A DNA stretch of 62,463 nucleotides from Acidobacteriota bacterium. Its GTDB lineage: Bacteria > Acidobacteriota > Thermoanaerobaculia > UBA5066 > Gp7-AA6. This document shows, in pieces, positions 12,845 to 62,460 of this stretch; the first letter of the stretch is position 1; each line of letters opens with the position of its first letter. The notes below the pieces were generated by a model that worked only from the letters and a program-made list of their open reading frames with translations, did not search any database and was not told where the DNA came from. The translations under genes were made by a program, and so were the position numbers. The stretch is from contig JBKOVK010000013.1 in NCBI GenBank assembly GCA_046724475.1, positions 1 through 62,463 on the forward strand. The letters run 5' to 3'.

Positions 12845-12921
12845 TGGTGGGCCGTCTGGGACTCGAACCCAGGACCACCGGCTTAAAAGGCCGATGCTCT
12901 AACCAACTGAGCTAACGGCCC
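12845..12921 (-). tRNA. tRNA-Lys (anticodon UUU), CCA encoded
   Basis: The reverse complement gggccgttagctcagttggttagagcatcggccttttaagccggtggtcctgggttcgagtcccagacggcccacca folds as a cloverleaf: 7-bp acceptor gggccgt/acggccc, anticodon loop cuUUUaa, T-loop ttcgagt. Confidence 0.93.
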
Positions 12922-17070: not shown

Positions 17071-18741
<1,671 letters not shown>

Positions 18742-18757
18742 AGAGGGCGACGCGACG

Positions 18758-21700
18758 GTGCTACGCCGGGCGCTTCTGGCCGTTTCGGTCCTGGCGCTTC
18801 TCCCGATCCTCTGGCTCGACGGCTGGTTTCCGTTTCCGTCGGGACGCGTCGACACGGTCGGCCCGCCCGCCGCGGTCTCGACTGCCCTCGCCGGCGTCGC
18901 CGCGGACCTGAAGCGGCGCGTGGACGCTCTGGCTTCCAGCGCGGAGGTGGCGAAGGCGCTGGAAGGCGGCGGGATCGCAGTGCGCCGCCAGGCGCTCTTT
19001 GCGAGCGCGCGCCAGGTGATGGATGGCGTGCCCCCGGGGGCATGGATCGCCCTCGCCGACCCGCGCGGAAACGCCCAGGCGTGGTGGGGCGACGCTCCCG
19101 CGCAGATCCCGAACATCCGAGCCTCCGGAACGCTGGAGGCCCGCTGGTCGGCGACGCGGCTGGAGATCGCGTACTGGCGCATCGTCGGCTCGGGACCGTT
19201 TGCGGGCGTCATCTGCGCCGCGCGGCCGATGCCCGTCGAGGCCCCCGCGTTCGGGGAAGCGCTCGGACTGGAGGGATCCTCGCTGGAGTGGGAGCCGATC
19301 GCTCCGGTACAGGGAAGCCCGGTGGTCCTCTCCGGGGAGGGCAGAACGCCCCTCGTCGCGGCGCGCCGCGAGCCGATCGAGCCTTCCCAGAGTCGCAGTC
19401 TCCGGGCGGCCGTGGTCGCCGGCGTCGTCGCCGCGGCAACCGTCGTCGCCGCCGCCGGACCGGGCTCGCTCGTGGTCGGAGCCGGGCTCGCGGCGGGCTT
19501 TCTCGCCGTCGAGGCCTTTGACGGTGGGGGCCGAAGCCTGTCATCGCCGGTGCCGTGGGTCCTGGCGCTCGGTCTCTTCCTGCTTCCGCGGGCTCTGTCG
19601 AGTCTGCGGCGCCGCGACGCTCCCGGAGCGCCGGCGCGCATCGTTATGGGCTACGCGCTCTTCGCCGGTGCCCTGTACGCGGCGGGTCGGATCGCGGTTC
19701 CCGACCTCGGCGCCGCCTTCTCGGTGTCGAGCGCCGACTTCTGGAAACTCGCCGCACTCTTCGGGCTGACGGCCGCGGCGCTGGCACTGGGAGCCTCGTC
19801 GTTCGGGCGCGAGGCCTCGCCGGCCTGGACGGGCGCGGCTCTCAGCATCACGGGCGCCGGCATCGTGGCGGGTCTTCTCTTCGTCTCGGCGGCGCCGGGT
19901 TATCGGATCGCGATCTTCGCCGTCAGCCTCGTCGCGTTCGAAGCGTGGCGGCGCGCGGTATCGGGGGCCTCCGCTGCCGGCGCCTTCGGGCCTTTTCGGT
20001 TGACGGCCGGCGCCACGCTGCTCGTGCTCCTGTCGGCCGCCGCCCTTCACGAACACCGGCGGACCGCCGAGGCCTTTCGCGTGGCGGACGCCATCCGCCT
20101 CCCGGATCCGACGCGAATCTCGGTCGACGCGGTCGTGGCGGTGCGGCGCGCGGTCGACCGCGTGCAGCGGTTCGACCTCGGCCGGGAGCTGCCGGCGCCC
20201 GTCGCGGACACGGACCTCTCCGACCTTGCCTACCGGCTCTGGAGAGACGGGGAAGAGCAGAGGCCCTCGACGTCGCTGATCGCCTACGAGGTCTTCGACG
20301 GCGAAGGAATGCTGCGCAGCCGCTTCTCGCTGATACCCGAAGCCGACGAGCCCGGCATCGGAGCGCCGGGTGTCCAGATCGAGCGCCACCGTGTCGCCGT
20401 CGTTCGCCAGATCGCCGGGCTCGCCGACTCCGGGAATCTCTGGGGGCGCGTCGTCGTGTCGGTCGCGGACTGGCCGAGCTGGGATCCGCTGCCGCCCAGG
20501 CTGGAGGTCTATCGCCGGCTGGTGGGAGGAGAGGCGACCCAGGCTCCGTCGCCGAGACCGGTTCTCGTCTCCTATGGCCCGGATGGGGCGCGCCGGGAGG
20601 ACGGACCCGAGCTGCCCGTACCCATCTTCGAGAAGGTGCGCGCTTCCGGGCGGCCGCAACGCGTCGACATCCGATACCGCGGCGAGGAGCTCCGGGGAGA
20701 GCTCCGGCCCGCTCCCGAAGGATTTCAGCTCATCGCCATCCCCGGTCCCGACTTTTTGCAGCGTCTGCTGACGGCCGCGCTCCTGCTGCCGGCGGCCGGC
20801 GCGCTGGCCCTCGTCGGGGGAGCCATCGTCTTTCTCCGTTTCCTCGCTTCTCGGCGTTCGGTCGAGGAGCTCCTGCCGCGAAGCGTCCCGACCTTTCGCG
20901 GCCGGCTCCTGGCGCTGTTCGTGCTGTCCGTGATGATTCCGCTCCTGGCGGTGACCTTCTACCTGCGCTCGTCGATCTCCGAGAGGACGAGCCGCGACAC
21001 CTTGGACCACGCGCGGACGGGGCTCGAGACGGCGCGTCGTGTGCTCGACGATTACCTGCTGTCGGCGGCGGCGGGGCGAGGGCGGCTCGAGCTCCTCGAC
21101 GACGCGCTGCTGTCGTGGCTGGCGAACGCCGTCGGCTTCGACCTGTCCGTCTACTCGCCGGAGTCGCGGCTGATCGCGAGCTCGCGGCGCGACCTCTACG
21201 CGGCCGGTCTCCTTCCCGAACGTGTGCCGGGACGAAGCTACGTCTCTGTAGGCCTGGGCGAGGCGCGCGACCTGACGGACGCACGCGTGATCGCGGGCAG
21301 CCCGTTCGAGGAGATCACGACCGCGCTCTCCGCGATGCCGGGTGTGCCCGGGGTGCGCAGCCCGATTCTGCTGTCGCTGCTGATGCTGCCCCAGCAGCGC
21401 ATTGCCGAGGCCGAGGCCGCACAGCTGACCGCGGCCGTCTCGGCGTTCTCGCTGCTCGTGTTCCTGATCTCGGCCGCCATCGCGGGGCGGCTCGCCCTGC
21501 GCGTCGCTCGACCCGTCGCCGACCTCGTCCAGGGCACACGGGCGGTCGCTCGCGGGGACTTCTCGCCGCGGCTCGCCGAGCCTCCCGACGAGGAGTTGCG
21601 AGAGCTCGTGCGCGCGTTCCTGTACATGTCGCGCAGCCTCAAGGAACAGACGGAGGCGCTTTCGCGCGAGAAGGAGCGGCTGGCGACCCTGCTGTCGCAG

Positions 21701-22675
21701 CTGACCGCGGGCGTCGTGGCGTACGGCGAAGACCATCAAGTTCTGCTGGCCAATCCGGCCGCGGCGCGCCTGGGCGGAGGAGTCGCCGAGGGATCCACGC
21801 TCGAGGACGTCTTTCCCGGCGAAGTGATGGCCCCGGTGCGGCGACTCCTCGAGCGACTTGGACCATATCCGGTCTCCGAGGAGCTGGAGCCGCGGCCCGG
21901 CGAACGATGGCGCGTCGTGACGGTTCCACTGCCGCTCGGGGGATCGGGAGCGCGCATGGCGGTCATCGAAGACGTTTCGGACGTCGTCCGCTCCAACCGG
22001 CTGGCGGCGTGGGCGGAAATGGCCCGGATCATCGCGCACGAGATCAAGAACCCGTTGACTCCGATCCGCCTGTCGGTCGAACATCTTCGGGAAGTCTGGA
22101 AACGCCAGTCCCCCGATTTCGATCGCGTTCTGGAGGAATGCGTGACGAACGTGTTGCGCCAGACCGAGGAGCTTCGGCGCTCCGCCGCGGAGTTCTCCGA
22201 TTACGCGAGGCTGCCTCGGCCGGAGACGCGGCCGATCGACGTCGGCGCCCTCGCGGCGGACGCAGCGGCGGCGTTTGCCGGAGCTCCCGGCATAAGCTGG
22301 TCCGTCGAGGCGACGCCGGGTCTCGAGGCCGTCGGCGACCCGCGCCTGATTTCCCGGGTCCTGTCGAACCTCGTCGGCAACTCCGTCGACGCGCTGCAGG
22401 GGCGGGGCATGATTCGAATCCGCGTGGATCGGCGCGACGGGCGCATCGAAACGGCGGTCGAAGACGACGGGCCGGGAGTTTCTCCCGAGATCCTGCCGCG
22501 CCTCTTCGACCCGTACTTCTCGGCCAAGAGCGGAGGCACCGGGCTAGGCCTGGCCATCGCGAAGAAGATCGTCGAGGAGCACGGAGGCACGATCGCCGCC
22601 GGCAACCGGCCGAAGGGAGGATTCCGCGTGGCCTTCGACCTCCCGGCGTCCGACGGCGGGAGCGGAGCCGCATGA
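18758..22675 (+). CDS. 1305-aa multi-pass membrane sensor histidine kinase (large N-terminal sensor, HAMP, PAS, NtrY-like HisKA, HATPase)
   Basis: GTG start 17 nt after hutU. C-terminus: HAMP (RVARPVADLVQGTRAVARGDFSPRL...), PAS-like (LSQLTAGVVAYGEDHQVLLANPAAARL), H-box IAHEIKNPLTPIRLSVEHL, N/G boxes (NLVGNSVDAL, DDGPGVSPE, GGTGLGLAIAKKIVEEHGG). No receiver domain and no response regulator gene nearby. Confidence 0.88.
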   Translation: MLRRALLAVSVLALLPILWLDGWFPFPSGRVDTVGPPAAVSTALAGVAADLKRRVDALASSAEVAKALEGGGIAVRRQALFASARQVMDGVPPGAWIALADPRGNAQAWWGDAPAQIPNIRASGTLEARWSATRLEIAYWRIVGSGPFAGVICAARPMPVEAPAFGEALGLEGSSLEWEPIAPVQGSPVVLSGEGRTPLVAARREPIEPSQSRSLRAAVVAGVVAAATVVAAAGPGSLVVGAGLAAGFLAVEAFDGGGRSLSSPVPWVLALGLFLLPRALSSLRRRDAPGAPARIVMGYALFAGALYAAGRIAVPDLGAAFSVSSADFWKLAALFGLTAAALALGASSFGREASPAWTGAALSITGAGIVAGLLFVSAAPGYRIAIFAVSLVAFEAWRRAVSGASAAGAFGPFRLTAGATLLVLLSAAALHEHRRTAEAFRVADAIRLPDPTRISVDAVVAVRRAVDRVQRFDLGRELPAPVADTDLSDLAYRLWRDGEEQRPSTSLIAYEVFDGEGMLRSRFSLIPEADEPGIGAPGVQIERHRVAVVRQIAGLADSGNLWGRVVVSVADWPSWDPLPPRLEVYRRLVGGEATQAPSPRPVLVSYGPDGARREDGPELPVPIFEKVRASGRPQRVDIRYRGEELRGELRPAPEGFQLIAIPGPDFLQRLLTAALLLPAAGALALVGGAIVFLRFLASRRSVEELLPRSVPTFRGRLLALFVLSVMIPLLAVTFYLRSSISERTSRDTLDHARTGLETARRVLDDYLLSAAAGRGRLELLDDALLSWLANAVGFDLSVYSPESRLIASSRRDLYAAGLLPERVPGRSYVSVGLGEARDLTDARVIAGSPFEEITTALSAMPGVPGVRSPILLSLLMLPQQRIAEAEAAQLTAAVSAFSLLVFLISAAIAGRLALRVARPVADLVQGTRAVARGDFSPRLAEPPDEELRELVRAFLYMSRSLKEQTEALSREKERLATLLSQLTAGVVAYGEDHQVLLANPAAARLGGGVAEGSTLEDVFPGEVMAPVRRLLERLGPYPVSEELEPRPGERWRVVTVPLPLGGSGARMAVIEDVSDVVRSNRLAAWAEMARIIAHEIKNPLTPIRLSVEHLREVWKRQSPDFDRVLEECVTNVLRQTEELRRSAAEFSDYARLPRPETRPIDVGALAADAAAAFAGAPGISWSVEATPGLEAVGDPRLISRVLSNLVGNSVDALQGRGMIRIRVDRRDGRIETAVEDDGPGVSPEILPRLFDPYFSAKSGGTGLGLAIAKKIVEEHGGTIAAGNRPKGGFRVAFDLPASDGGSGAA

Positions 22676-32624: not shown

Positions 32625-33076
32625 AGCTCGTCATCCAGCGCGTCTCGAGCGCGTCCGTCCGGGTCGGAGACGAGATCGTCGGAGAGATCGGCCGTGGCTT
32701 CCTGGTCCTCTTCGGCGCGGAGAGGGGCGACACCGCAACGCTCGCATCCGAGGCCGCCCGGAAAGTCGCGGGCTTGCGCATCTTCGAGGACGCCGAGGGA
32801 AAAATGAATCTCTCGCTCGCCGACGTCGGAGGCGAGGTCCTCGCCGTCTCGCAGTTCACGCTCGGCGCCGATCTGTCGCGCGGCCGCCGGCCCGGCTTCG
32901 AGCATGCCCTGCGCGGGCCGGAAGCCGAGCCGCTCTACGAGGGATTCGTGGCGGCGCTCCGAGGCGAAGGCCTCTCGGTTTCTACCGGAATCTTCGGAGC
33001 GATGATGTCCGTCGCCCTCGTCAACGAGGGGCCGGCGACTTTTCTTCTCGAGCTGCCACGGCGCGCGTCCGGTTAG
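32621..33076 (+). CDS. dtd: D-aminoacyl-tRNA deacylase
   Basis: GTG 32621 (GTGA overlap with murJ), 151 aa. VKLVIQRVSSASVRV...GRGFLVLFG...KMNLSL...VLAVSQFTL...GRRPGF...GIFGAMMSVALVNEGPATFLLE. Confidence 0.9.
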   Translation: MKLVIQRVSSASVRVGDEIVGEIGRGFLVLFGAERGDTATLASEAARKVAGLRIFEDAEGKMNLSLADVGGEVLAVSQFTLGADLSRGRRPGFEHALRGPEAEPLYEGFVAALRGEGLSVSTGIFGAMMSVALVNEGPATFLLELPRRASG

Positions 33077-33948
33077 AGCACCCGGATCGGCGTCAGCGCG
33101 AAGGACAGCAGGAAGATCGCGATGCACGCGAGCGCGACGAGCGTGCGTCCGAAGTCCAGAGGCTCGTTGTCGTCGGTCATCGGGGGATGGGCGAATCCCG
33201 TCAGCAGCACGGCGAACGCCGCGAAGACCAGCCAGATCGGCGGACCGGAGAAAGCGCCCGCGACGGCCAGGGCCAGAGCCGCGGCGCCGGCCAGCGGCTG
33301 GCGGCGCCCGAGCAGGGCGCGCGTAACGTGCGAGCCGTCGAGCTGTCCCAGCGGAATCAGGTTCATCGCGGTGACGAGCAGGCCGAACCATGCGGCCATG
33401 AAGGTCGGATGCTCGTGCACGCTCGCGCTCGTGTAGGGCTGCACGTGCATCCACTTCTGCGCCCATCGGACGATCATGGGATAGTCGAACAGCACCAGGC
33501 CGGGCTGGAGCGGCGTGGTCGTGGGTCGAGGATGCGCGACGCCGTACAAGAGGAACGGGATCGTCGCGACGAATCCCGCGATGGGGCCGGCCGCTCCGAT
33601 GTCGAGCAGGATCCGCTTGTTCGGGATCGGCTCCTTGATGCGGATGAGGGCGCCGAACGTTCCGAACGAGAGAAAGCCCGGGAAGAGGATCGGCGACGGG
33701 AGGAAGATCGGCAGCGTCGCCGCGAGCCGGTACCGGCGGCACATCAGGTAGTGGCCGGTCTCGTGGACGCCCAGGATGATCATCACCGGGATGGAGAAGG
33801 CGAATCCGTCCGAGAAGCGGCCCTTCGCCAGCCATCCTCCGTTGGTCGTGAACGCCGCGCCGCCGGCCAGCGTCGTCGTGACGAAGGTCAGCAGGAACAG
33901 CGCGAGATGAAAGAGAGGATGCTCGACGAAACGCCGGTAGCCGCTCAA
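33073..33948 (-). CDS. site-2 protease family membrane metalloprotease (peptidase M50)
   Basis: HExxH (GVHETGHYLMC) and the second S2P motif (AMNLIPLGQLDGSH) in a polytopic protein. The track ORF (to 34569) overlaps the upstream gene. My best start guess is TTG 33948 (MSGYRRFVEHPLFHLALFLL...); the start is uncertain. Confidence 0.75.
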   Translation of the reverse strand: MSGYRRFVEHPLFHLALFLLTFVTTTLAGGAAFTTNGGWLAKGRFSDGFAFSIPVMIILGVHETGHYLMCRRYRLAATLPIFLPSPILFPGFLSFGTFGALIRIKEPIPNKRILLDIGAAGPIAGFVATIPFLLYGVAHPRPTTTPLQPGLVLFDYPMIVRWAQKWMHVQPYTSASVHEHPTFMAAWFGLLVTAMNLIPLGQLDGSHVTRALLGRRQPLAGAAALALAVAGAFSGPPIWLVFAAFAVLLTGFAHPPMTDDNEPLDFGRTLVALACIAIFLLSFALTPIRVL

Positions 33949-33992
33949 ACGCGGAGGAGGCTCGGGCGGCGGGGAATCGAGGGAGGGACCGG

Positions 33993-35342
33993 TCAGACGC
34001 TGCTCGCGGGGGCTGCCTTCCGAAGCTCGAGCAGCAGCTTCGCGAGAGCGCTTCCGAGGGAGCTGGCGGCGATCTCGAGAGTTCGGTAGTCGTCTTCGGA
34101 CATCGGCGCGCCGAGCCGGTCCGCGTAGAGGAAAGCGACCAGCCGGTCTTTGATGCGGACCGGGTAGACCGCGCACGACGCCGTGGCGCGCGGGCCCAAC
34201 AGGCGCGCGACCGCCGGCGGCATCAGGACGCGGCTCAAACCGCCGCGGTGCGGAGATCCCGAGAGTTTGACGAACGCGAAGATCGAGGGCTCTCCCCACG
34301 GGATCCGCAGCCGCGACACGCCTTCCCGGCTGATGCCGCCGCCGCGAGCCGTCCAGCCCTGGATGGACTCCTGCGCCGAGACGAAGAGAAGCAGCCGCGG
34401 GAACTGCGTCGCGAGGCTGTCCAGCGCCGCCTCGGCGATCCGGTCGCGCCCCGAGGGGCCCGGCTCGGAAGGCGCGGGCGCGACGACGACGGGGGCGGGA
34501 GCGGGAGGCGGCGCCTGCACCGGAATCGGTACCGGAGTCTCGAACTCCGCGATGTCGTCGTTCTTCCACATCTGCGCCGCGAGCTGCTCGGGCGGCTGCG
34601 GCGGCGCGAAGTCCGGCAGGAGCTCCGCGCTGTCGGCGAGCTCGATCTGCGGGTCCTCCGCGGAGAGGAACGGAGCCGCGTACGCGGATCGCCGGCCCGG
34701 CGGAGTCTCCTCCTCTCCCACCGAGATCGGGATTCGCGTGGCGCGAGTGCGGCGCGGCGGAGCGGGGGCCGCGGAGGGCGCGGGCGCTTCCGTCATGTCG
34801 GGCACCGACGCCGTCGGCGCCGGCGCGTCGGCCGCGGGTCGCGGACGATCTCCCCGCCTCTCCTCGTTGCGCTCAAGCTTGTTCAGAACGCTGCGGAACT
34901 CGATCGGAATCGGACGGCCGTAGAAGAGATGAAGCGCCTGCAGCAGCCGCACCTCCGAGATCACGGCCGGAACGATGGGGCGGCCGGTCAGCGCGGACAC
35001 TTCGTCCACGGCCGCCAGGTTGGACGGGTTCTTGAACGCGACGCGCGCGCCGCGTCCCTCCAGCGCATACGGAATCGCGGCCAGTCGGATCGCTGCGCGC
35101 TCCGGCAGGAGGCGGACGACGTGGGGAGGCGATTTCAAGATTTCCGACCACGTCACGTAGTCGCAGCGGTGGATCGTCGCGAGCGCCTTCAGGAGGCTCT
35201 CTTCTCCGAGCAGATCGCGGTCGAGAAGGATCGTGCCGAGCCGGAACGGTTCGCCGGTGTGCCGCTGAAAGCCGAGTGCGCTTTGAACGGCGCCTTCCGA
35301 GAGAACTCCCTCGGCTACGAGCAGCTCGCCGATGCGAGGCAT
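33993..35342 (-). CDS. ATPase-less MshEN/T2SSE_N-domain protein with Pro-rich linker and GAF-like C-terminal domain (paralog A)
   Basis: 449 aa. MPRIGELLVAEGVLSEGAVQSALGFQ...RLGTILLDRDLLGEESLLKALATI...AAIPYALEGRGARVAFKNPSNLAAVDEVSALTGRPIVPAVISEVRLLQALHLFYG is T2SSE_N-like. The C-terminus ...AVYPVRIKDRLVAFLYADRLGAPMSEDDYRTLEIAASSLGSAL is GAF-like by eye. Confidence 0.7.
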   Translation of the reverse strand: MPRIGELLVAEGVLSEGAVQSALGFQRHTGEPFRLGTILLDRDLLGEESLLKALATIHRCDYVTWSEILKSPPHVVRLLPERAAIRLAAIPYALEGRGARVAFKNPSNLAAVDEVSALTGRPIVPAVISEVRLLQALHLFYGRPIPIEFRSVLNKLERNEERRGDRPRPAADAPAPTASVPDMTEAPAPSAAPAPPRRTRATRIPISVGEEETPPGRRSAYAAPFLSAEDPQIELADSAELLPDFAPPQPPEQLAAQMWKNDDIAEFETPVPIPVQAPPPAPAPVVVAPAPSEPGPSGRDRIAEAALDSLATQFPRLLLFVSAQESIQGWTARGGGISREGVSRLRIPWGEPSIFAFVKLSGSPHRGGLSRVLMPPAVARLLGPRATASCAVYPVRIKDRLVAFLYADRLGAPMSEDDYRTLEIAASSLGSALAKLLLELRKAAPASSV

Positions 35343-35375
35343 CGTCCTTATTCTATTTCGGACCGGGAGGCGAGG

Positions 35376-35645
35376 CTAAGGCAGGTCGCGCAGATCCTTG
35401 CCGGGTTTGAACCGGATCGTGTTGCCCGGAGGAATCGACACCTCGACGCCGGTCTTGGGGTTGCGGCCGATGCCGCGCTTGCGGCGCTTGACCTGAAACA
35501 CCCCGAATCCGCGAAGCTCGATGCGGTCGCCGGCACCGAGCGCGGAGCGCATGGCTTCTATGACCGTTTCCACGGCCGTCGCCGCTTTGGCCCGGGGGAT
35601 CTGGGCGAGATCCACCACGCGATCCACGATGTCCGCTTTGATCAT
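35376..35645 (-). CDS. IHF/HU-family DNA-binding protein (IHF-like)
   Basis: ATG 35645 is preceded by GGAGGA, 89 aa. MIKADIVDRVVD...VETVIEAMRSALGAGDRIELRGFGVFQVKRRKRGIGRNPKTGVEVSIPPGNTIRFKPGKDL. The long 487-aa track ORF is an off-frame extension. Confidence 0.9.
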   Translation of the reverse strand: MIKADIVDRVVDLAQIPRAKAATAVETVIEAMRSALGAGDRIELRGFGVFQVKRRKRGIGRNPKTGVEVSIPPGNTIRFKPGKDLRDLP

Positions 35646-35668
35646 CGGTCCTCCGGGGTACCCCGAAA

Positions 35669-37024
35669 TTATATAACCTGCTTTTTCTTCAGTCGGATGG
35701 ACGCTGCCAGGGCCGCCGCGCAGGCTCCGGCGAGCTCCCGGGCGTAGGTCAGGTCCGCCGGGGTGGCCCCGGTGCTGCCCGAGGACTCCGAGAGGAAGAA
35801 GGCCACCGCCTTCTCGCGCATGAGGACCGGCTGGACCAGGCACTCGGCCGGGACGCCCCCCAGAGCCCGGGTCAGATCGTCGTGGCGGGGCAGGGGAGGA
35901 AGCGCGCCGAGATAGAAGGACCGGGACAGCCGCACGTTGAGAAAGATCGACGGCTCCGACCAGGGAATCTCGAGCTCCTTGAGCGCTTCGGCATCCACGT
36001 CGGGACCGCCTCCGGACCAGCCCGCGACGCCTTCGGGCCTCGCGAGGAAAACGGCATTTCGCACGAAGCGCCGATTGAGAGCCGACAGCGCCGCATCGAG
36101 GATCCCGTCCCGGCCTTTGCTCGACGCGGCCAGGATTCCCTTGAAGTCGGAGGCCTCCGGCATCCCGGGCATGGCGGAGGGCCGGGGCGCCGCTGTCGGG
36201 TTGGCGGTCGTCTCGCGCCAGGCCGGAGGCCTCGGCGCTTTGGGGGGAGGCGCAGAGGGAGGCGGCGCGGCCACCGGCGGCGGCGCCGGACGAGGCTCTT
36301 CGCGCCTGGGAGGACGCGACGCCGCGGAAGGAACCTCTTCCCACGCAATCGATTCGGCCTCGGCTTCGATTTCCTCGGGCGGAGGCGGCAGGCCGCCCCA
36401 GCCGACCGGAGGCTCGTCGGGAATCTTCCAGTTCGAGATCGCCGGGCGATCGTCCGCATCTGATCCGAACCGCGGTTCGCCCGGCAGGAAGGGCGTGTCG
36501 GCCGAGAAGTCGGGCGGAGGAGGCAGATTCTTTCGAATCACGGACGGAGCCGTAGGGCGCGAGAGCTTCTCCGCCAGGATGGCGAACCGCGGCGTCCGAC
36601 GCTCGCCGTAGTACTTCTCGAGCGCCTGGTACAGGCGCACCTCGGGAGCCACCGCCGGCACGATCTTCTTGCCGGTGACGAAGAAGAGCTCGTCGAGGAT
36701 CCGCAGGTTCGCCGGGTCCCGCAGGGCGACGCGGATGAAACCCTCGCCCAGCTCGACTGGGACCGCGGAGTGGCGAATCGCGAATTTCGCGGGAAGCGTG
36801 GCCGTGACGGCCGCCGGCAGCGTCGAGAGCGTCTTCCACGGAATGTAGAGGCAGCCATGCTGCTCGGCCAGAGCCTTCCCGATGTCGTCCTCGGAGGCCG
36901 AGCCCCGCTCGATCAAGAGCGTGCCGATCCGGCCGCCGGCAAAGCTCTGGACGGCGAGAGCACGGTTGACGCTCTCCTCCGTGACGGCGCCGCAGCGCAC
37001 GAGAAGGACCCCCAGTCGCGGCAT
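35669..37024 (-). CDS. ATPase-less MshEN/T2SSE_N-domain protein with Pro-rich linker and GAF-like C-terminal domain (paralog B)
   Basis: ATG 37024 (AAGGGA upstream), 451 aa. MPRLGVLLVRCGAVTEESVNRALAVQ...RIGTLLIERGSASEDDIGKALAEQ...AVPVELGEGFIRVALRDPANLRILDELFFVTGKKIVPAVAPEVRLYQALEKYYG. The C-terminus ...LVQPVLMREKAVAFFLSESSG...ELAGACAAAL. Same plan as paralog A. Confidence 0.7.
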   Translation of the reverse strand: MPRLGVLLVRCGAVTEESVNRALAVQSFAGGRIGTLLIERGSASEDDIGKALAEQHGCLYIPWKTLSTLPAAVTATLPAKFAIRHSAVPVELGEGFIRVALRDPANLRILDELFFVTGKKIVPAVAPEVRLYQALEKYYGERRTPRFAILAEKLSRPTAPSVIRKNLPPPPDFSADTPFLPGEPRFGSDADDRPAISNWKIPDEPPVGWGGLPPPPEEIEAEAESIAWEEVPSAASRPPRREEPRPAPPPVAAPPPSAPPPKAPRPPAWRETTANPTAAPRPSAMPGMPEASDFKGILAASSKGRDGILDAALSALNRRFVRNAVFLARPEGVAGWSGGGPDVDAEALKELEIPWSEPSIFLNVRLSRSFYLGALPPLPRHDDLTRALGGVPAECLVQPVLMREKAVAFFLSESSGSTGATPADLTYARELAGACAAALAASIRLKKKQVI

Positions 37025-37035
37025 GAATCCCTTGA

Positions 37036-37878
37036 TTATCGCGTACCCGGAGAGGCGAGGAGGCGCTCGTCGCCCGGGGCCGTCTTCTCCCAGTAGCGGG
37101 AGCGCAGCGAGGTCTGGAGCTTGAGGGTGCCGCCGTCGCTGCGTTCCCACAGAGCGAGCCGGTGGGGAAAGGCCCTCTCGAACTCGAACGTGTCGCGCCG
37201 GTCGCCGCGGGAGAGCCGGACGCGATAGACGCCGGCCGCCACGCCGGGACGCTCCACCTCGAGAATCGCGTCGTCGACGGGCGGAACCGCGGGTTTGGAG
37301 CCGAAGACCGAGTCGACCACCCGCAGCCGGCCGGAGCGTGTCCGCTCGAAGTCGAGGCTTCGCAGCTCCAGCGGGAGCGCGTCGTAGAAGACGGCCTCGC
37401 GCGGATCGAGCGGTGCGTCCACGTCTCCCGGAGTTTCGAAGTACGACCGGATGGCCATCGTGCCGGTGTCCGATCGCCATTCCACGAAGCTGTTGCCGCA
37501 CCATTCGTGGCTCGTCATCGTGAGCTTGACCGGAGAGAGCCGGTCGGCGTCGGCGAAAAACGACAGCATCTGCTGGTACGTGTACAGCCCGCTCGGAATC
37601 GAGCGGACGTGATTGAACTTCAGAACGCGCCGGCTCTTCGCGCGGGCCGGGTCGTCGGCTTTCACCAGGCGGTCGGCGAGAAGGTCCTCGGCCACGACGA
37701 TGAGAACGGCGCGCGAGGTGCGCAGTCGCCCCTCTCGCTTGTCGGTGGCCTCGTAGACGGACACCTCGGCCTGGCCGTCGTTCCACAGCGCTTCACGGCC
37801 GAATCCCGCCTTCCACACCACTTTTTCTCCGGCTGGGGCCGCGGCAAGGGCGGCGAGCAGCAGGAGTCGAGCGGACAT
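37036..37878 (-). CDS. exported hypothetical protein (280 aa)
   Basis: GAGGAGG SD. Signal peptide MSARLLLLAALAAAPAG. No family recognised. Lies 11 nt upstream of paralog B on the same strand. Confidence 0.6.
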   Translation of the reverse strand: MSARLLLLAALAAAPAGEKVVWKAGFGREALWNDGQAEVSVYEATDKREGRLRTSRAVLIVVAEDLLADRLVKADDPARAKSRRVLKFNHVRSIPSGLYTYQQMLSFFADADRLSPVKLTMTSHEWCGNSFVEWRSDTGTMAIRSYFETPGDVDAPLDPREAVFYDALPLELRSLDFERTRSGRLRVVDSVFGSKPAVPPVDDAILEVERPGVAAGVYRVRLSRGDRRDTFEFERAFPHRLALWERSDGGTLKLQTSLRSRYWEKTAPGDERLLASPGTR

Positions 37879-37948: not shown

Positions 37949-39847
37949 GTGAAGCGCGCCGCTTTTTTTGCCGCGCTGCTCCTCGCCGGGACCTTCGCGG
38001 CCGGGGGCGGCGACCTCGCCGAGAGCCGCAAGACCTTTCTCGCCGCGCGAACGGCCGTCGCCGAGGGCCGCTATCAGGAAGCGCTGGCCCTCTACCGCAA
38101 GGTCCTCGAGAAGATGCCGGCCGACCCGGTGGTCCACTTCGAGTACGCGCTCCTGCTTCGGGACCTCAACGTCGCCGAGCAGGCCGAGTCGGAAGCGCGC
38201 GAAGCGGTCCGGCTGGACCCCGACCTCGCCGAAGCTCAGAAGCTTCTGGGCTCGATGGAGCTCGCCGGGGCCGAGTCGGATCCCAAGCGCCTCAACGCGG
38301 CGATCGAGCACCTCTCGGCGGCCCGCCGTCTCGCGCCGGCCGACGTCGGAACCGCCGTGGGCCTGGCGCGGGCGCTCCTGGCGGCAGACCGCGCCGCGGA
38401 AGCGGCGGCGGTTCTGGATGAGCTGCCGGAGCTGGCGGGCCAGCCCTCCGTCCAGCGTCTGACCGCCGAGGCCAAGGCCAAGAGCGGCCAGTCCAAGGAA
38501 GCCGAGGCAATCTACCGGGAGCTCTGGCGCGCCGATCCGTCGGATCGCGAGATCGCGGCGGCGCTGATCGACCTCTATGAGGACGAGGACAAGATGGAGG
38601 AGGCGCTCACCGTGCTGGCAACTCTCGAGCGCCGCGATCCGTCAAACAGCGCCGTCACGGAGAGGATCGTCCTCGATCTCGCGCGCGCCGGACGCTTCGC
38701 CGAGGCCGAGAAGCGAGCCCGTGAGCTCACGGCGAATCGTCCGGAGAACCGCGCCGGCCAGCGGCTCCTCGCGACGGTGCTCTTCGAGCGCGGCCAAACG
38801 CAAGAGGGCGAGAAGGTGCTGCGCGCGCTGATCGAGGCAGACCCGGACGACCTGATCTCGCGGCGGGCCCTCGCATCCGAGCTCGTGCGCGAGCGCCGGT
38901 TCGACGAAGCCAAGACGATGTACGAAGAGATCGGAAAAGCGGCCGGCGACGATCCCCGCCGTGCGGACGCCCGCGTCGCCTCGACCGTCGAGCTCGGATT
39001 CATCGCGTACCTGCAGAAGGACTGGGCGAAGGCGCGTGAGATCCTCGGGCCGGCCGCTCTCGCGGACGGGAAGGTGCAGGGGCGGGCGGCGCGGATCCTG
39101 CTCGCCGCCGACCGCGACGGAGAGGACTTCAACGACGGTCTGACGCGCGCCCGGGCGTACGCGGCGGCCGATCCCAACGATCCCGAATGGACCGCCGCGG
39201 CCGCCGAGTTTGCGGTGCGGACCGGACAGAAGGCGGAAGGCGAGAAGCAGCTCGACGCTCTCGGCGCTTCCGGCGACATCGAGAAGATGATGGCCGCGGC
39301 CGACGCCTACGGAAGACTCAAGAACTACGAGGCCGCCGTACGCATCGCGCGTGCGGCCGTCGCCCTGCGACCCGAGAATGCCGAAGCCAAGTTCCGCCTC
39401 GCGTCGAGCCTCGAGCGGGGAGGCAACCCGGCGGAAGCCGAGAAGGTCTTCCTCGAGCTTCTGACGCAGCGCCCCAACGACGCGGCGTCGCAGAACTACC
39501 TGGGTTACATGTGGGCGGACCAGGGCGTCCAGCTCGAGCGCGCCCGCGAGCTCCTCGAAAAGGCCGTGGCGCGAGAACCCCGCAACGCGGCGTACCTAGA
39601 CTCGCTCGGCTGGCTCTACTTCCGCATGGGCAAGCTGGACTCGGCCGAGAAGAACCTGCGCGAGGCGGCGCGCCGCGAGCCGTCGGATCCCACGATCTCC
39701 GAGCACCTCGGCGACCTCGACATGAAGAACGGCGATCTCGAAGGCGCGGTGCGGCAGTGGGAAAAGGCGCTGGAGCTGAAATCCGAGGACGCCGATCGCG
39801 TCCGGGAGAAGCTCCGCCGCGCGCGCGAGCCCGTCTCGAAGCGTTGA
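37949..39847 (+). CDS. exported tetratricopeptide (TPR) repeat protein
   Basis: 632 aa. Signal peptide MKRAAFFAALLLAGTFAAG. Many 34-aa A/L/Y-rich TPR units (e.g. AASQNYLGYMWADQGVQLERARELLEKAVAREPRNAAYLDSLGWLYFRMGKLDSAEKNLREA). Confidence 0.85.
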   Translation: MKRAAFFAALLLAGTFAAGGGDLAESRKTFLAARTAVAEGRYQEALALYRKVLEKMPADPVVHFEYALLLRDLNVAEQAESEAREAVRLDPDLAEAQKLLGSMELAGAESDPKRLNAAIEHLSAARRLAPADVGTAVGLARALLAADRAAEAAAVLDELPELAGQPSVQRLTAEAKAKSGQSKEAEAIYRELWRADPSDREIAAALIDLYEDEDKMEEALTVLATLERRDPSNSAVTERIVLDLARAGRFAEAEKRARELTANRPENRAGQRLLATVLFERGQTQEGEKVLRALIEADPDDLISRRALASELVRERRFDEAKTMYEEIGKAAGDDPRRADARVASTVELGFIAYLQKDWAKAREILGPAALADGKVQGRAARILLAADRDGEDFNDGLTRARAYAAADPNDPEWTAAAAEFAVRTGQKAEGEKQLDALGASGDIEKMMAAADAYGRLKNYEAAVRIARAAVALRPENAEAKFRLASSLERGGNPAEAEKVFLELLTQRPNDAASQNYLGYMWADQGVQLERARELLEKAVAREPRNAAYLDSLGWLYFRMGKLDSAEKNLREAARREPSDPTISEHLGDLDMKNGDLEGAVRQWEKALELKSEDADRVREKLRRAREPVSKR

Positions 39848-40515
39848 GCCGGCGCGACCTCCTCCGTCTCGCTTCGCCCCTTCTCTCTCTGACCCTGGCC
39901 GCCTGCGCAACGCGCGGAGCCACCCGGCACTTTTCTCCCGCGACGGAAGCCGTTTCCCGCGAGGCGCTGGACGCCTGGGGCGCGATTCGCGAGCGCGCCG
40001 GACGGCTTCCATCCTCCCGGCTCCTCTACGATGCGAAGATGGGCCGCGGTTCCGTCGCCGCGGTTCCCGGAAGCCTCGCCGTGACCTACACCGACGGTGA
40101 GGTGAAGCGGGCGTCGCTGACCGGGCCGTTCGGCAGCCACATCGCCGACTACGCCGGAGGGACCGTCACCGGCGAGGACCGCAAGGCCTTCGTCGTGGAC
40201 CCGGAGGCTCTGCGCTCGGTGCTGGCCGGGACGTGGCCGGGCACGCCCAGCACTGTGGCCGGCTGCGACGGCGATTCGTGCCTCCTCGTCTGGGACGGGC
40301 CTCCCCGGGTCTCGGCCGTCGTGGACCGGATCGCGCGCCAGACGCGCGAGCTCTCGCTCGAGGGCGACGCCGGCAAGCTCGTGGCGGCCTATTCGGGTTC
40401 CGCGTCTCCGTGGCCCGAGCGGATCGGGATCCGCGAAGAGCGCTCGGATCGCACGCTGGCCCTGAAGTTGATCGCCGTCGAGCCTCAGGTTTCGGCTCCG
40501 TCTCCGGGCCGATGA
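39844..40515 (+). CDS. lipoprotein, LolB-like by position (upstream of ispE)
   Basis: TTG 39844 (TTGA overlap with the TPR stop). Lipobox LSLTLAA/C, 223 aa. Function is inferred only from the conserved lolB-ispE-prs type synteny and the size; homology was not verifiable by eye. Confidence 0.5.
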   Translation: MSRRDLLRLASPLLSLTLAACATRGATRHFSPATEAVSREALDAWGAIRERAGRLPSSRLLYDAKMGRGSVAAVPGSLAVTYTDGEVKRASLTGPFGSHIADYAGGTVTGEDRKAFVVDPEALRSVLAGTWPGTPSTVAGCDGDSCLLVWDGPPRVSAVVDRIARQTRELSLEGDAGKLVAAYSGSASPWPERIGIREERSDRTLALKLIAVEPQVSAPSPGR

Positions 40516-41718: not shown

Positions 41719-41794
41719 TGGGGCGTCGCCAAATTGGTAAGGCACCGGCCTTTGGAGCCGGCATTTCTAGGTTCGAGTCCTAGCGCCCCAGCCA
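41719..41794 (+). tRNA. tRNA-Gln (anticodon UUG), CCA encoded
   Basis: tggggcgtcgccaaattggtaaggcaccggcctttggagccggcatttctaggttcgagtcctagcgccccagcca. Acceptor tggggcg/cgcccca, anticodon stem ccggc/gccgg, loop cuUUGga, T-loop ttcgagt. Confidence 0.92.
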
Positions 41795-58530: not shown

Positions 58531-58566
58531 ATCAGGCTTTCTGTTACCCTAGGCGATCACCTTCTA

Positions 58567-60198
58567 GTGCCAATGACGACTCAGGCGAAGCCGGCCGGTT
58601 TTCGGGGCTCCCTGTCCGAGACGCCCCTGCCGCAGGTTCTGCGGAGGATCTTCCTCGAGGGGCTCAAGGGGACCCTTTCGCTCGTCCACGGGGACGAGAC
58701 CCGGCACCTCTTCTTCGAGAAGGGCGAGCTGCGCACGGCCACTTCGTCGCGCGAGGGCCAGCGCATCGGGGCCTTCCTGCGCCGTCGCGGCTGCATCACG
58801 GACACCGATCTCAACTGGGCCCTGGAGACGGTCGCCAAGCAGGGACGGGCGAGGCTCGGAAAGATCCTGGTCGATCGGGGGCTCGTCTCGCGCACGGTCC
58901 TCGATGCTGAGATGCGCCGGCTGGTCGAGGAGATCGTGTTCTCGACGTTCGCCTGGGACACGGGCGAATACCGCTTCCAGGCGTCCACCGGCGTCCTGGA
59001 TCCGGACGTCGCGCTGACCCTTTCGACGGCCGCGATCATCGTCGAGGGGATTCGCCGGCTCCCCGAGAGCGAGGCTTTCCGCGAGAGGCTGGGCGACGGC
59101 CATGGGGTTCCGATCCTGGCCACGGATCCGATGTCGCGCTACCAGTACCTCCCGCTCACGCCGCAGGAGGCGTACCTGTTGTCGCGCATCGACGGCATCC
59201 TCGAAGTGGATTCTCTCCTGAAGATCGCGGGCGCCTCGCGGGCGGCCACGGGCAAGATCCTCTACGGCCTCATTTCGTGCGGGATCGTCGAGTGGAAGCA
59301 GGAAGGCGCGGAGAGGCCGGCCAGCGGCCGCGGCGGTTTCCACGGACTGAACGTGGAAGTCGGCGCCGAGCCGGCGGACCGGTCGCCGGGACACGCCGAG
59401 CTCGTGCGCAACACCTACCGCCGCATCGACTGGCTGACGCACTACGAGCTGCTCGGCGTGCCGAGGGACGCGACGACCGAGAAAATCGCCGAGGCCTATT
59501 TCGAGCGCAGCCGCCTTTTTCACCCCGACCTGCGCCACCGCGAAGATCTCGCCCGATTCGAGAAGGAGCTGGTGGCCGTCTTCGAGAGGATGAAGATCGC
59601 ATACGAGGAGCTCTCGGACGCGGAGCGCCGGGCGCTCTACGATCAGAGCCTGGATGCCGCGCCGGCTTCGCTGCTGATGACCGAGGCGCCGACGACCGAT
59701 CCCGAGATGCGCAAGAAGCTCGCCGCCCAGAATTTCCGGCGCGCACGCCAGCTCATCGAAGAGAAGGACTATCACCCGGCCGTCGAGATGCTCCGCGCTG
59801 CCGTGCGCTTCGTTCCCGACAACGCGGAGTACCGCTATGTCCTGTCCCAGGTCGAGATGAAGAATCCGAACTGGATCGACCAGGGCCTCTCCAACCTGAA
59901 GGAGGCCGCGCGTCTGGACAGCCGGCGCGTGGCGTATTCCGTGGAGGCCGCTCGCGCGCTGGCCGACCACGGCCGTCACCAGGAGGCCGAGCCCTTCGCC
60001 CGCCGCGCCGTGTCGCTGGACCCCTCGCCCGAAAACGAAGAGCTCCTGGCCCGGATCGTCACCGGCGCCTCGCAGCCGGCCCCGGCTCCCGTAGCGGCCA
60101 TGAAAGAACCCGCGAAGGAGATCGAAACGGCCGTGCCCGAGGCCGAGCCCGCGCCCCAGCCGACCGGTCTTCTCTCGCGCCTCTTCCGGAGAGGATGA
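58567..60198 (+). CDS. DUF4388/PATAN-like domain protein with a J-domain (HPD) and TPR-like C-terminus
   Basis: 543 aa. N-terminus GSLSETPLPQVLRRIFLEGLKGTLSLVHGDETRHLFFEKGELRTA...FAWDTGEYRFQ. J-domain THYELLGVPRDATTEKIAEAYFERSRLFHPDL...YEELSDAERRALYD. An alternative ATG start at 58573 is possible. Confidence 0.72.
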   Translation: MPMTTQAKPAGFRGSLSETPLPQVLRRIFLEGLKGTLSLVHGDETRHLFFEKGELRTATSSREGQRIGAFLRRRGCITDTDLNWALETVAKQGRARLGKILVDRGLVSRTVLDAEMRRLVEEIVFSTFAWDTGEYRFQASTGVLDPDVALTLSTAAIIVEGIRRLPESEAFRERLGDGHGVPILATDPMSRYQYLPLTPQEAYLLSRIDGILEVDSLLKIAGASRAATGKILYGLISCGIVEWKQEGAERPASGRGGFHGLNVEVGAEPADRSPGHAELVRNTYRRIDWLTHYELLGVPRDATTEKIAEAYFERSRLFHPDLRHREDLARFEKELVAVFERMKIAYEELSDAERRALYDQSLDAAPASLLMTEAPTTDPEMRKKLAAQNFRRARQLIEEKDYHPAVEMLRAAVRFVPDNAEYRYVLSQVEMKNPNWIDQGLSNLKEAARLDSRRVAYSVEAARALADHGRHQEAEPFARRAVSLDPSPENEELLARIVTGASQPAPAPVAAMKEPAKEIETAVPEAEPAPQPTGLLSRLFRRG

Positions 60199-62071: not shown

Positions 62072-62460
62072 GGCTCCGAGCGGGCCACGCGATCGCTCCG
62101 GGACGATTCGTTCCGGAGAGGAAAGTCCGAACTCCATACGGGCGGCATGCCGGGTAATCCCCGGTCGCGGCGACGCGAAGGAAAGTGCCACAGAGAACAA
62201 ACCGCCCTCCGAAAGGACGGCAAGGGTGAAACGGTGCGGTAAGAGCGCACCGCTCCTCCGGCAACGGAGGGGGCACGGCAAACCCCATGCGGAGCAAGGC
62301 CAAATAGGGAGGCAGCGGGCGCCCGTCCCGCCTCACGTCACGTGAGCTGCCTCCGGGTCGGCTGCTCGAGCCCGAGGGCGACCTCGGGCCCAGAGGAATG
62401 ATCGCGGCCCCGCCCTCGCGGCGGGGAACCGAATTCGGCTTATCGGCCCGCTCGGGGCTC
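62072..62460 (+). ncRNA. rnpB: RNase P RNA, bacterial type A (complete; P1 closes at both ends)
   Basis: Universal elements read directly: GAGAGGAAAGUCCGAACUCC (62116-62135), AGGGUGAAACGGUGCGGUAAGAGCGCACC, GGCAAACCCCA, and the P4 3' strand GAACCGAAUUCGGCUUAUCGG. The 5' ggctccgagcgggcc pairs with the 3' ggcccgctcggggctc. End coordinates are accurate to a few nt. Confidence 0.9.

Follow-up and report, generated by a model that had tools for sequence, protein, structure and literature searches.

The stretch of DNA considered in this work, hereafter called the window, comprises 62,463 nucleotides (nt) of an Acidobacteriota bacterium assigned to the class Thermoanaerobaculia (contig JBKOVK010000013.1 of assembly GCA_046724475.1) and has a G+C content of ~69%. 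Five genes follow each other on its minus strand at positions 33073-37878. In the direction of transcription they encode a hypothetical protein of 280 amino acids (37036..37878) with an N-terminal hydrophobic, signal-like segment; a protein of 451 amino acids, hereafter abbreviated as B (35669..37024); an HU/IHF-family DNA-binding protein (89 amino acids, 35376..35645), hereafter HU; a paralog of B with 449 amino acids, hereafter A (33993..35342); and a polytopic zinc metalloprotease of the M50 or site-2 protease family (33073..33996), which has 307 residues if it starts at CTG 33996 or 291 if it starts at TTG 33948. In both paralogs an MshEN domain (residues 1-156 in B and 1-165 in A) is followed by a long linker (~157-300 and 166-296, respectively) and then by a C-terminal domain with the GAF fold (~301-451 and 297-449). 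The gene coordinates confirm the intergenic gaps of 11 nt (280-residue gene to B), 23 nt (B to HU) and 33 nt (HU to A) that had been reported in an earlier note on this DNA, whereas the fourth gap of ~44 nt given there holds only if the protease starts at TTG 33948, a codon that is missing in the closest relative (locus L093). All five genes show a G+C content at third codon positions of 0.81-0.89. Moreover, a codon-by-codon comparison of four of them with their counterparts in L093 (91-94% identical) reveals mostly synonymous change, the protease gene lying outside this comparison.

In both paralogs the N-terminal domain is recognized by the Pfam profile MshEN (PF05157), with 55.6 bits for B and 44.0 bits for A against a gathering cut-off of 23.1, and the same profile matches all 24 family members that were scanned. 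Of the predictable receptor domains for cyclic diguanylate (c-di-GMP), MshEN is among the two principal ones, and the dedicated NCBIfam model c-di-GMP_motif (NF053729) scores 45.8 bits with B and 38.1 bits with A, its cut-off being 38. No T2SSE ATPase domain is present among the reported domain matches of A or B. The equivalog models of PilB and GspE cover only residues ~4-145, with 14-38 bits versus cut-offs of 630-676, so that the absence of the ATPase core of these proteins, already noticed from the sequence, is upheld; what lies beyond the N-terminal domain is accounted for by the linker and the GAF domain. The latter remains below threshold in Pfam searches with the window proteins, for A has 18.8 bits with GAF (PF01590; cut-off 22.4) and B has 14 bits with GAF_2 (PF13185; cut-off 28.6). 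Across the family, GAF or GAF_2 is matched at E<=0.01 by 10 of the 24 members scanned (best value 3e-07), and a precomputed match to PF13185 is attached to many orthologs of B.

Structure prediction supports the same domain assignment. The AlphaFold model of B, built with the family alignment, has a mean predicted local distance difference test (pLDDT) of 79.5, with confident domains at either end of a disordered middle region (~159-280). The model of A also presents both domains with confidence and has pLDDT below 50 in residues 166-248 and 261-295. Block means of pLDDT in the C-terminal domains range from 81 to 97. When compared with known structures by Foldseek, the N-terminal domains of both models match 5htl and 8pdk with a probability of 1.00 and target template modeling (TM) scores of 0.67-0.75, B being paired with 5htl (MshE with bound c-di-GMP) and A with 9g1w and 5htl. 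The C-terminal domains match solved GAF structures, namely 3o5y (target TM 0.77) and 2vks (0.80) for A, 5w10 (0.70) and 3oov (0.76) for B. Thus, the three-part plan of MshEN domain, linker and GAF-like domain that the earlier note had proposed is sustained by profile searches together with structure prediction; its first part stands above the gathering score of Pfam, whereas the GAF assignment stands by the predicted fold and not by the profile scores of the window proteins. The paralogy of A and B is far beyond chance, as judged from the alignment of their N-terminal (42% identity over 158 residues, E=8e-31) and C-terminal domains (37% identity over 115 residues, E=1e-21). Residues conserved in the GAF domain include GW, PSxF, Cys390, Y406 and D408. 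Neither transmembrane segments nor DNA-binding domains were found in A and B.

The nucleotide-binding motif of MshEN domains consists of two 24-residue units of the form RLGxx(L/V/I)(L/V/I)xxG(L/V/I)(L/V/I)xxxxLxxxLxxQ that are separated by a 5-residue spacer (Wang et al. 2016, PMC5013675). The predicted c-di-GMP site of B occupies residues 3-55 (36860..37018, minus strand). Its motif I, RLGVLLVRCGAVTEESVNRALAVQ, fits the relaxed form of the motif (PMC5013675) and is followed by SFAGG, a spacer of the canonical 5 residues, while motif II, RIGTLLIERGSASEDDIGKALAEQ, has Ser at position 11 and Ala at position 12 and fails the relaxed form at position 11 only. A retains an intact motif I, a spacer of 7 residues and a motif II in which Asp replaces Gly at position 10 and Ile replaces Gln at position 24. 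Consequently, the published relaxed regular expression matches only motif I in either protein. Across 125 diverse members of the family, the key positions of the motif are kept in 76-97% of the sequences: R/K3 in 95, G5 in 117, L8 in 118 and Q26 in 116 of them for the first unit, R/K34 in 106, G36 in 116, L39 in 118 and L54 in 121 for the second. Only 63 of the 125 retain the Gln at the end of motif II. Because of the state of the motif in each paralog and its conservation in the family, we consider that B is likely to bind c-di-GMP and that A is uncertain in this respect.

The linkers that join the two domains (window 36125-36556 in B and 34455-34847 in A) are disordered regions of ~130-145 residues with 24-27% proline and a net charge of -6 in B and -9 in A. 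Acidity and proline content are maintained throughout the family, the share of members with a net acidic linker being 84-100% and the proline content 18-26%. Short motifs are kept within each paralog group, namely LPPPPDFS, PPVGWGGLPPP and ESIPWEE(L/M)P in that of B and YAAPF, LADAxDxLPDF and AxxMWK in that of A, and these look like docking motifs for partner proteins.

To appreciate the extent of this family and the conservation of its gene neighborhood, which the earlier note had proposed to survey, we searched 1.84 billion representative proteins with a family profile and scanned GTDB with one genome per species. The profile search retrieved 921 clusters (at 50% identity) with E<1e-30, and the best 150 of these clusters are mostly full-length proteins of MshEN-linker-GAF architecture having 370-560 residues, the remainder being fragments. 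The GTDB scan was based upon an alignment sharing GRLGTCLLE and covers single-copy types only; it left 80 loci, nearly all from metagenome-assembled genomes of Thermoanaerobaculia/Acidobacteriota, including the order Candidatus Multivoradales. The family gene is followed by HU in 68 of the 74 species loci with enough contig, and HU is followed by the M50 gene in 61 of 64. The duplicated type comprises 14 loci, the window and 13 related ones (including 10 that were found via the exact HU sequence), and each of them has the order B-HU-A-M50, while distant relatives, with ~30% identity to both A and B, have a single family gene, then HU and then M50. The arrangement seen in the window is thus conserved, and its simpler form, the triad, recurs in most of the 80 GTDB loci.

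The surroundings of the triad are no less stable. Upstream lies a divergent gene for a tetratricopeptide repeat (TPR) protein, then ispE, SpoVG, prs, L25 and pth, and downstream are dtd and SSB; these flanks are conserved as well as the triad, and synteny extends over ~15 kb in the whole class. The genes annotated in the wider window also fit a housekeeping synteny block. Because it is present across the GTDB loci with flanks that are equally conserved, the triad of MshEN-GAF, HU and M50 genes would be ancestral, embedded within this housekeeping block. (An open reading frame at 39187-40515 of the plus strand, downstream of the TPR gene, has no Pfam match and shows a lipobox-like LTLAAC; it sits at the position of lolB in the classical cluster lolB-ispE-prs and may encode a divergent LolB-like lipoprotein.) Some family members lie elsewhere, having neither HU nor M50 nearby (loci L011, L012, L026, L029 and L032); both loci of a distant group with the C-terminus EVYILKNKIR are devoid of HU and M50. 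The neighbors of stand-alone members, including a xanthine/uracil permease, a SpoU methylase and a DinB-family protein, are uninformative. At the margin of the family, a protein of 1080 residues (P0326, annotated by NCBI as a Nitrospirota TadA-like ATPase) matches the family profile in four stretches; it is a long protein of the ATPase type with repeated MshEN domains, and shows at which point the profile grades into common ATPases with several MshEN domains.

As to the origin of the duplicated type, B, like the single-copy gene, adjoins the TPR gene, and its scores are closer to the single-copy types than those of A. On this evidence B is the ortholog, by position, of the ancestral single gene, and A is a derived copy placed between HU and M50. 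From the order of the genes we infer that [MshEN-GAF + HU] was duplicated in tandem and that one copy of HU was subsequently lost, producing B-HU-A-M50. The bracketing of HU by the two paralogs, to which the earlier note had drawn attention, is thus a real feature of the layout, yet it can be explained by such a duplication and loss. A different history would apply to the first gene of the cluster. The 280-residue protein has no match in Pfam, NCBIfam or the sequences of PDB, and its gene is restricted to two loci, that of the window and that of L093, the closest relative; the two copies share 92% identity and differ mostly synonymously. It was not found at that position in any other locus compared. 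It is a recent, lineage-specific insertion that lies outside the conserved cluster. The protein may be exported, judging from the N-terminal hydrophobic stretch seen by eye and in hydropathy plots. The cluster cannot be maintained as a unit of five genes, since the first is missing from all relatives except the nearest.

The protein encoded between the paralogs matches PF00216 with 90 bits (cut-off 22.4) and contains the beta-arm with the intercalating Pro of the RNPxT motif, here in the form GRNPKTG. Its relatives in PDB are IHF and HU proteins, and NCBI names it "HU family DNA-binding protein". Because every equivalog score of the IHF/HU group falls below its cut-off (83 versus 115 bits for IHF-beta, 75 versus 111 for IHF-alpha and 61 versus 157 for HU-beta), the protein is best called HU-family on present scores; the IHF/HU assignment made previously stands at the level of the family and not at that of IHF alpha or beta. 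Its net charge is +8. The sequence is under extreme constraint, being 100% identical in 13 related loci with neighboring proteins of 63-81% identity, while over all loci sharing the protein the other proteins range from 63 to 93%; in three of these loci the nucleotide differences number 11, 41 and 43, and all are synonymous. The exact HU sequence is recorded on 495 contigs, from species in which identity of the neighboring proteins is no more than 63-81%.

HU also has a conserved element in front of its gene. In single-copy loci (L004-L092) a sequence of the type TTGACn-N17/18-TAnnnT precedes HU in 66 of 73 cases, against a mean of 0.17 in shuffled sequences; it lies ~20-60 nt upstream, and 48 of the 66 loci have exactly 21 nt between the end of its -10 element and the ATG. 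In the duplicated type, in which the gap between B and HU has shrunk to ~22 nt, the box TATAAT (35668..35673, minus strand) lies at the position equivalent to the single-copy -10, overlapping the stop codon of B and placed 22 nt 5' of the HU ATG, and is likely the -10 element of the HU promoter. The last seven codons of B, together with the stop codon and the next T (window 35668-35690), read AAG/AGG AAA AAG CAG GTT ATA TAA T, and across this coding end only one base varies among the 14 loci (the window, L001, L003 and L093-L103), while codons further upstream vary synonymously. GTT and ATA are rare codons in a genome of 69% G+C. The B-HU gap measures 20-24 nt in 13 duplicated-type loci and 6 nt in L098. 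Taken together, these features make it likely that HU has its own conserved promoter of the sigma-70 type, which in the lineage of the window would lie inside the last codons of B. Scanning the window alone had detected no promoter, and this one emerged only from the comparison of loci.

Other conserved signals surround the family genes. The single-copy gene is preceded in 48 of 72 loci by TTTACA-N17/18-TATAAT (0.02 in shuffled sequences), and its leader contains two conserved blocks, ..TAA(G/A)T.. and ..A(A/G)xxxTTAG.., ~17 nt apart. RNAalifold applied to 22 single-copy leaders returned no structure, just conserved sequence blocks, which may represent a second promoter or an operator. This element is missing from the lineage of the window, in which two different boxes are present. 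GATAAT (37035..37040, minus strand) lies 10 nt 5' of the ATG of B and overlaps the stop codon of the 280-residue gene; in the context ...TACG(C/G)GATAATC it recurs in all nine duplicated-type loci with the start of B located, including loci that do not have the 280-residue gene. TAGAAT (35350..35355, minus strand) lies 7 nt 5' of the ATG of A, and recurs 6-10 nt from this ATG in 13 of the 14 duplicated-type loci, with variable flanks. Since several relatives also have no clear Shine-Dalgarno sequence in front of A, the two boxes may be -10 elements for leaderless mRNAs or mRNAs with a very short leader.

With respect to transcript ends, no terminator-like site was found in the gene-strand intergenic gaps, the scan giving 4 matches in total versus 3.0 expected by chance; the two minus-strand matches fall inside the coding sequences of A and B. 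In the single-copy loci inspected by eye, no obvious terminator was seen in the HU-M50 interval either, and a comparison with Rfam gave no known RNA family for the cluster or its vicinity. It is probable that HU shares transcripts, at least partially, with the genes downstream of it, because their gaps are fixed, the protease start overlaps the end of A and terminator-like sites are lacking in the gaps. The cluster is not one simple operon because of the conserved promoter 5' of HU, though read-through is likely. A single operon of five genes is contradicted by this internal promoter as well as by the confinement of the 280-residue gene to two loci.

The last gene of the cluster encodes a protein that matches PF02163 with 65.4 bits, well above the cut-off of 27.2, and in its 291-residue form the motifs HETGH and NLIPLGQLDG begin at residues 62 and 196, respectively, with hydrophobic segments numbering about six. 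The assignment to site-2 proteases of the M50 family thus holds. Neither a PDZ nor a CBS domain was found in this protein, and a search of PDB sequences gave nothing useful for it. The beginning of its gene deserves attention, for the peptide of the M50 frame is conserved from the CTG at 33996-33994 (window 33946-33996), a codon overlapping the stop codon of A as CTGA. The equivalent codon is GTG, at or near the stop codon of A, in L001, L099 and L103, while several of the other relatives (among L093, L003, L097, L100 and L101) have no canonical start between the stop codon of A and the first transmembrane segment. It is because the peptide begins at CTG, with no canonical start codon available, that gene callers predict truncated proteases of 236 residues in several assemblies. 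This overlap suggests that A and the protease are translationally coupled. The idea that the locus may include a module of regulated intramembrane proteolysis has found no substrate or regulator there: we saw no sigma/anti-sigma pair, pro-sigma factor or site-1 protease at the locus, its neighbors being dtd, MurJ, SSB, TPR and ispE.

Elsewhere, the window contains other noteworthy genes. A protein of 555 residues (58531-60198, plus strand) combines a DUF4388 domain of the PATAN type with a DnaJ J-domain, and a histidine kinase of ~1337 residues (18662-22675, plus strand) has the order HAMP-HisKA-HATPase after a long N-terminal region devoid of Pfam matches. The RNA genes comprise two tRNAs (12848-12921 on the minus strand and 41719-41791 on the plus strand) and, at the end of the window, a bacterial RNase P RNA of class A (62077-62458, plus strand; 290.8 bits).

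Comparison with known systems helps to place A and B. [quoted passage not shown] Unlike MshE, PilB and PilF, they are devoid of the T2SSE ATPase and carry instead a GAF domain at the end of the disordered linker, with the 7-residue spacer as an additional difference in A. Of the genes that could be identified around the cluster, here and in related loci, none belongs to a pilus or secretion system. Other MshEN fusions have been described by Wang et al. (2016; PMC5013675), namely with the glycosyltransferase NfrB, in the PA3740 arrangement MshEN-xT2SSE_N1, in FrgA of Myxococcus xanthus (MshEN-UNK-HEAT) and in the GAF-MshEN-T2SSE proteins of Geobacter. As would be the case in A and B, MshEN functions in these fusions as a portable c-di-GMP input for varied outputs, some of them without the ATPase, and its co-occurrence with GAF is known. 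However, the order MshEN-linker-GAF is not listed in their table, and the Geobacter proteins have GAF at the N-terminus and keep the ATPase. No paper on a protein of MshEN-linker-GAF architecture was found in the literature, nor any characterized system with this layout; the earlier note knew of none either.

The mode of action that we consider for A and B has analogs among the stand-alone PilZ-domain adaptors. Proteins such as MapZ and YcgR are small cytoplasmic receptors of c-di-GMP without enzymatic or DNA-binding output, which act by binding partner proteins. A and B would work in similar fashion, but neither their fold nor their way of binding is related to that of PilZ, and only an analogy is meant, not membership of the same family. 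An effect of c-di-GMP on the nucleoid has a precedent in CdbA of M. xanthus, a nucleoid-associated protein that binds c-di-GMP (PMC7156744). CdbA is a ribbon-helix-helix protein and binds the nucleotide itself, whereas no ligand site is known for the HU considered here and sensing would reside in a separate protein. Signaling by site-2 proteases is typified by RseP and SpoIVFB. The M50 protein of the window shares with them the motifs HExxH and NxxPxxxxDG within hydrophobic segments, but differs in having neither PDZ nor CBS domains and in the lack of an adjacent sigma/anti-sigma pair, site-1 protease or any other substrate that could be recognized.

On the whole, we lean, without great confidence, to the view that A and B are cytoplasmic, non-enzymatic receptors or adaptors of c-di-GMP that belong to an uncharacterized family, and that the layout of their genes results from old synteny, duplication and insertion. 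In such a scheme, c-di-GMP would bind to the N-terminal four-helix bundle, likely in B and uncertainly in A; the GAF domain would provide dimerization and/or a second ligand input; and the output would consist of protein-protein interactions, possibly via the short conserved motifs of the linkers. The ancestral locus of Thermoanaerobaculia would have contained the MshEN-GAF gene, HU with its own promoter and the M50 gene amid housekeeping genes, and in the lineage of the window the tandem duplication with loss of one HU would have been followed by insertion of the 280-residue gene upstream of B. Several observations weigh against parts of this view. Hydrophobic residues are usual where motif II of B has Ser and Ala, the second half-site of A deviates at two key positions with a spacer of 7 rather than 5 residues, and both proteins stay below the GAF gathering scores. 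Among the 29 larger open reading frames of the window scanned with Pfam, none encodes a diguanylate cyclase or a phosphodiesterase. The duplication scenario was deduced just from the layout, with no HU remnant seen between A and M50, and the promoters were called by their fit to a consensus, little work being available on promoters of this phylum. The MshEN-like domain might instead serve for protein interaction, as in XpsE of Xanthomonas and in the PilZ-binding N-terminal domain of PilB, with the input coming through GAF or with the protein being a mere scaffold. PilF GSPII-A and XpsE are indeed MshEN folds with degenerate motifs that do not bind c-di-GMP, and it is the non-binding GSPII-A (9g1w) that constitutes the top structural match of A; moreover, for almost every family member only a single 24-residue motif out of the two conforms even to the relaxed pattern, and just half of the 125 sequences keep the final Gln of motif II. 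We nevertheless deem this alternative unlikely. In proteins with only ~30% identity, the conservation reported above for the first Gln and for the key positions with Arg/Lys, Gly and Leu would be difficult to account for if no ligand were bound; B clears the cut-off of NF053729 with a margin; and motif II of each paralog has non-conservative changes in only 2 of 11 key positions, whereas GSPII-A retains 45% identity at these positions.

The remaining alternatives concern the relationship of the paralogs with their neighbors. At one extreme, the cluster could simply be made of independent housekeeping genes lying side by side, their short gaps reflecting a compact genome. This is a serious possibility, though not one that we would expect to prevail. 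The synteny of the whole ~15-kb region across the class and the conservation of internal promoters fit well with it, as do the insertion of the 280-residue gene, which left the rest undisturbed, and the tolerated loss of M50 from the locus. It is less easily reconciled with gaps that are unusually fixed (for example, that between B and HU in 13 loci), with the overlap of the M50 start and the stop codon of A, and with the lack of terminator-like sites in the gene-strand gaps and of obvious ones between HU and M50 in single-copy loci. At the other extreme, and in line with the ligand-responsive module suggested by the earlier note, the paralogs could be the sensors, for c-di-GMP and/or a ligand of GAF, of a dedicated signaling module that acts upon its neighbors, for instance with the acidic linker sequestering and releasing HU or with the M50 protease being gated from the cytoplasm. 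Adjacency of the family gene and HU is never broken in syntenic loci and survives with different downstream genes (L006 and L090) or without M50 (L019, L025 and L027); after the duplication each paralog lies directly upstream of one candidate partner, with the protease start overlapping the end of A; the linkers are consistently acidic, as opposed to the net charge of +8 in HU; and HU itself shows no non-synonymous change against 11-43 synonymous ones. Yet the TPR gene, dtd and SSB are kept almost as well, which points to synteny of the block rather than to a specific pair, and because the whole neighborhood is syntenic, adjacency tells little about function. In addition, HU and the family gene have separate conserved promoters, the stand-alone members mentioned before do without HU and M50, the known substrates of site-2 proteases are membrane-anchored whereas A and B have no transmembrane segment, and no sigma or anti-sigma factor is nearby. 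A dedicated module of this sort is consequently improbable in our estimation. Its most explicit version, in which the linker binds the basic HU so that c-di-GMP sets the amount of free HU, while A became specialized on M50 from the cytoplasmic face after the duplication, we regard as very unlikely. Under the preferred view of A and B as c-di-GMP adaptors, functional coupling to HU or to the protease is possible, and, if local partners exist, the layout suggests pairing B with HU and A with M50.

What the present results mean for c-di-GMP signaling follows from the domain composition of the family. To our knowledge, nearly all the MshEN examples studied so far regulate pilus or secretion ATPases or else glycosyltransferases. 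An MshEN domain attached only to GAF implies that the output must be a protein partner. Thermoanaerobaculia is an abundant class in soil and sediment with very few cultured members, and most of its species sampled here carry a copy of the family at a fixed locus. The embedded HU promoter, for its part, would offer an example of a coding end frozen by a regulatory signal. The fixed position beside HU and M50 provides two concrete candidates for the partner; otherwise, the family would be a target for finding a new output of c-di-GMP. If coupling to these neighbors were true, c-di-GMP would reach chromosome architecture and proteolysis by a new path, in a phylum in which such signaling is unexplored.

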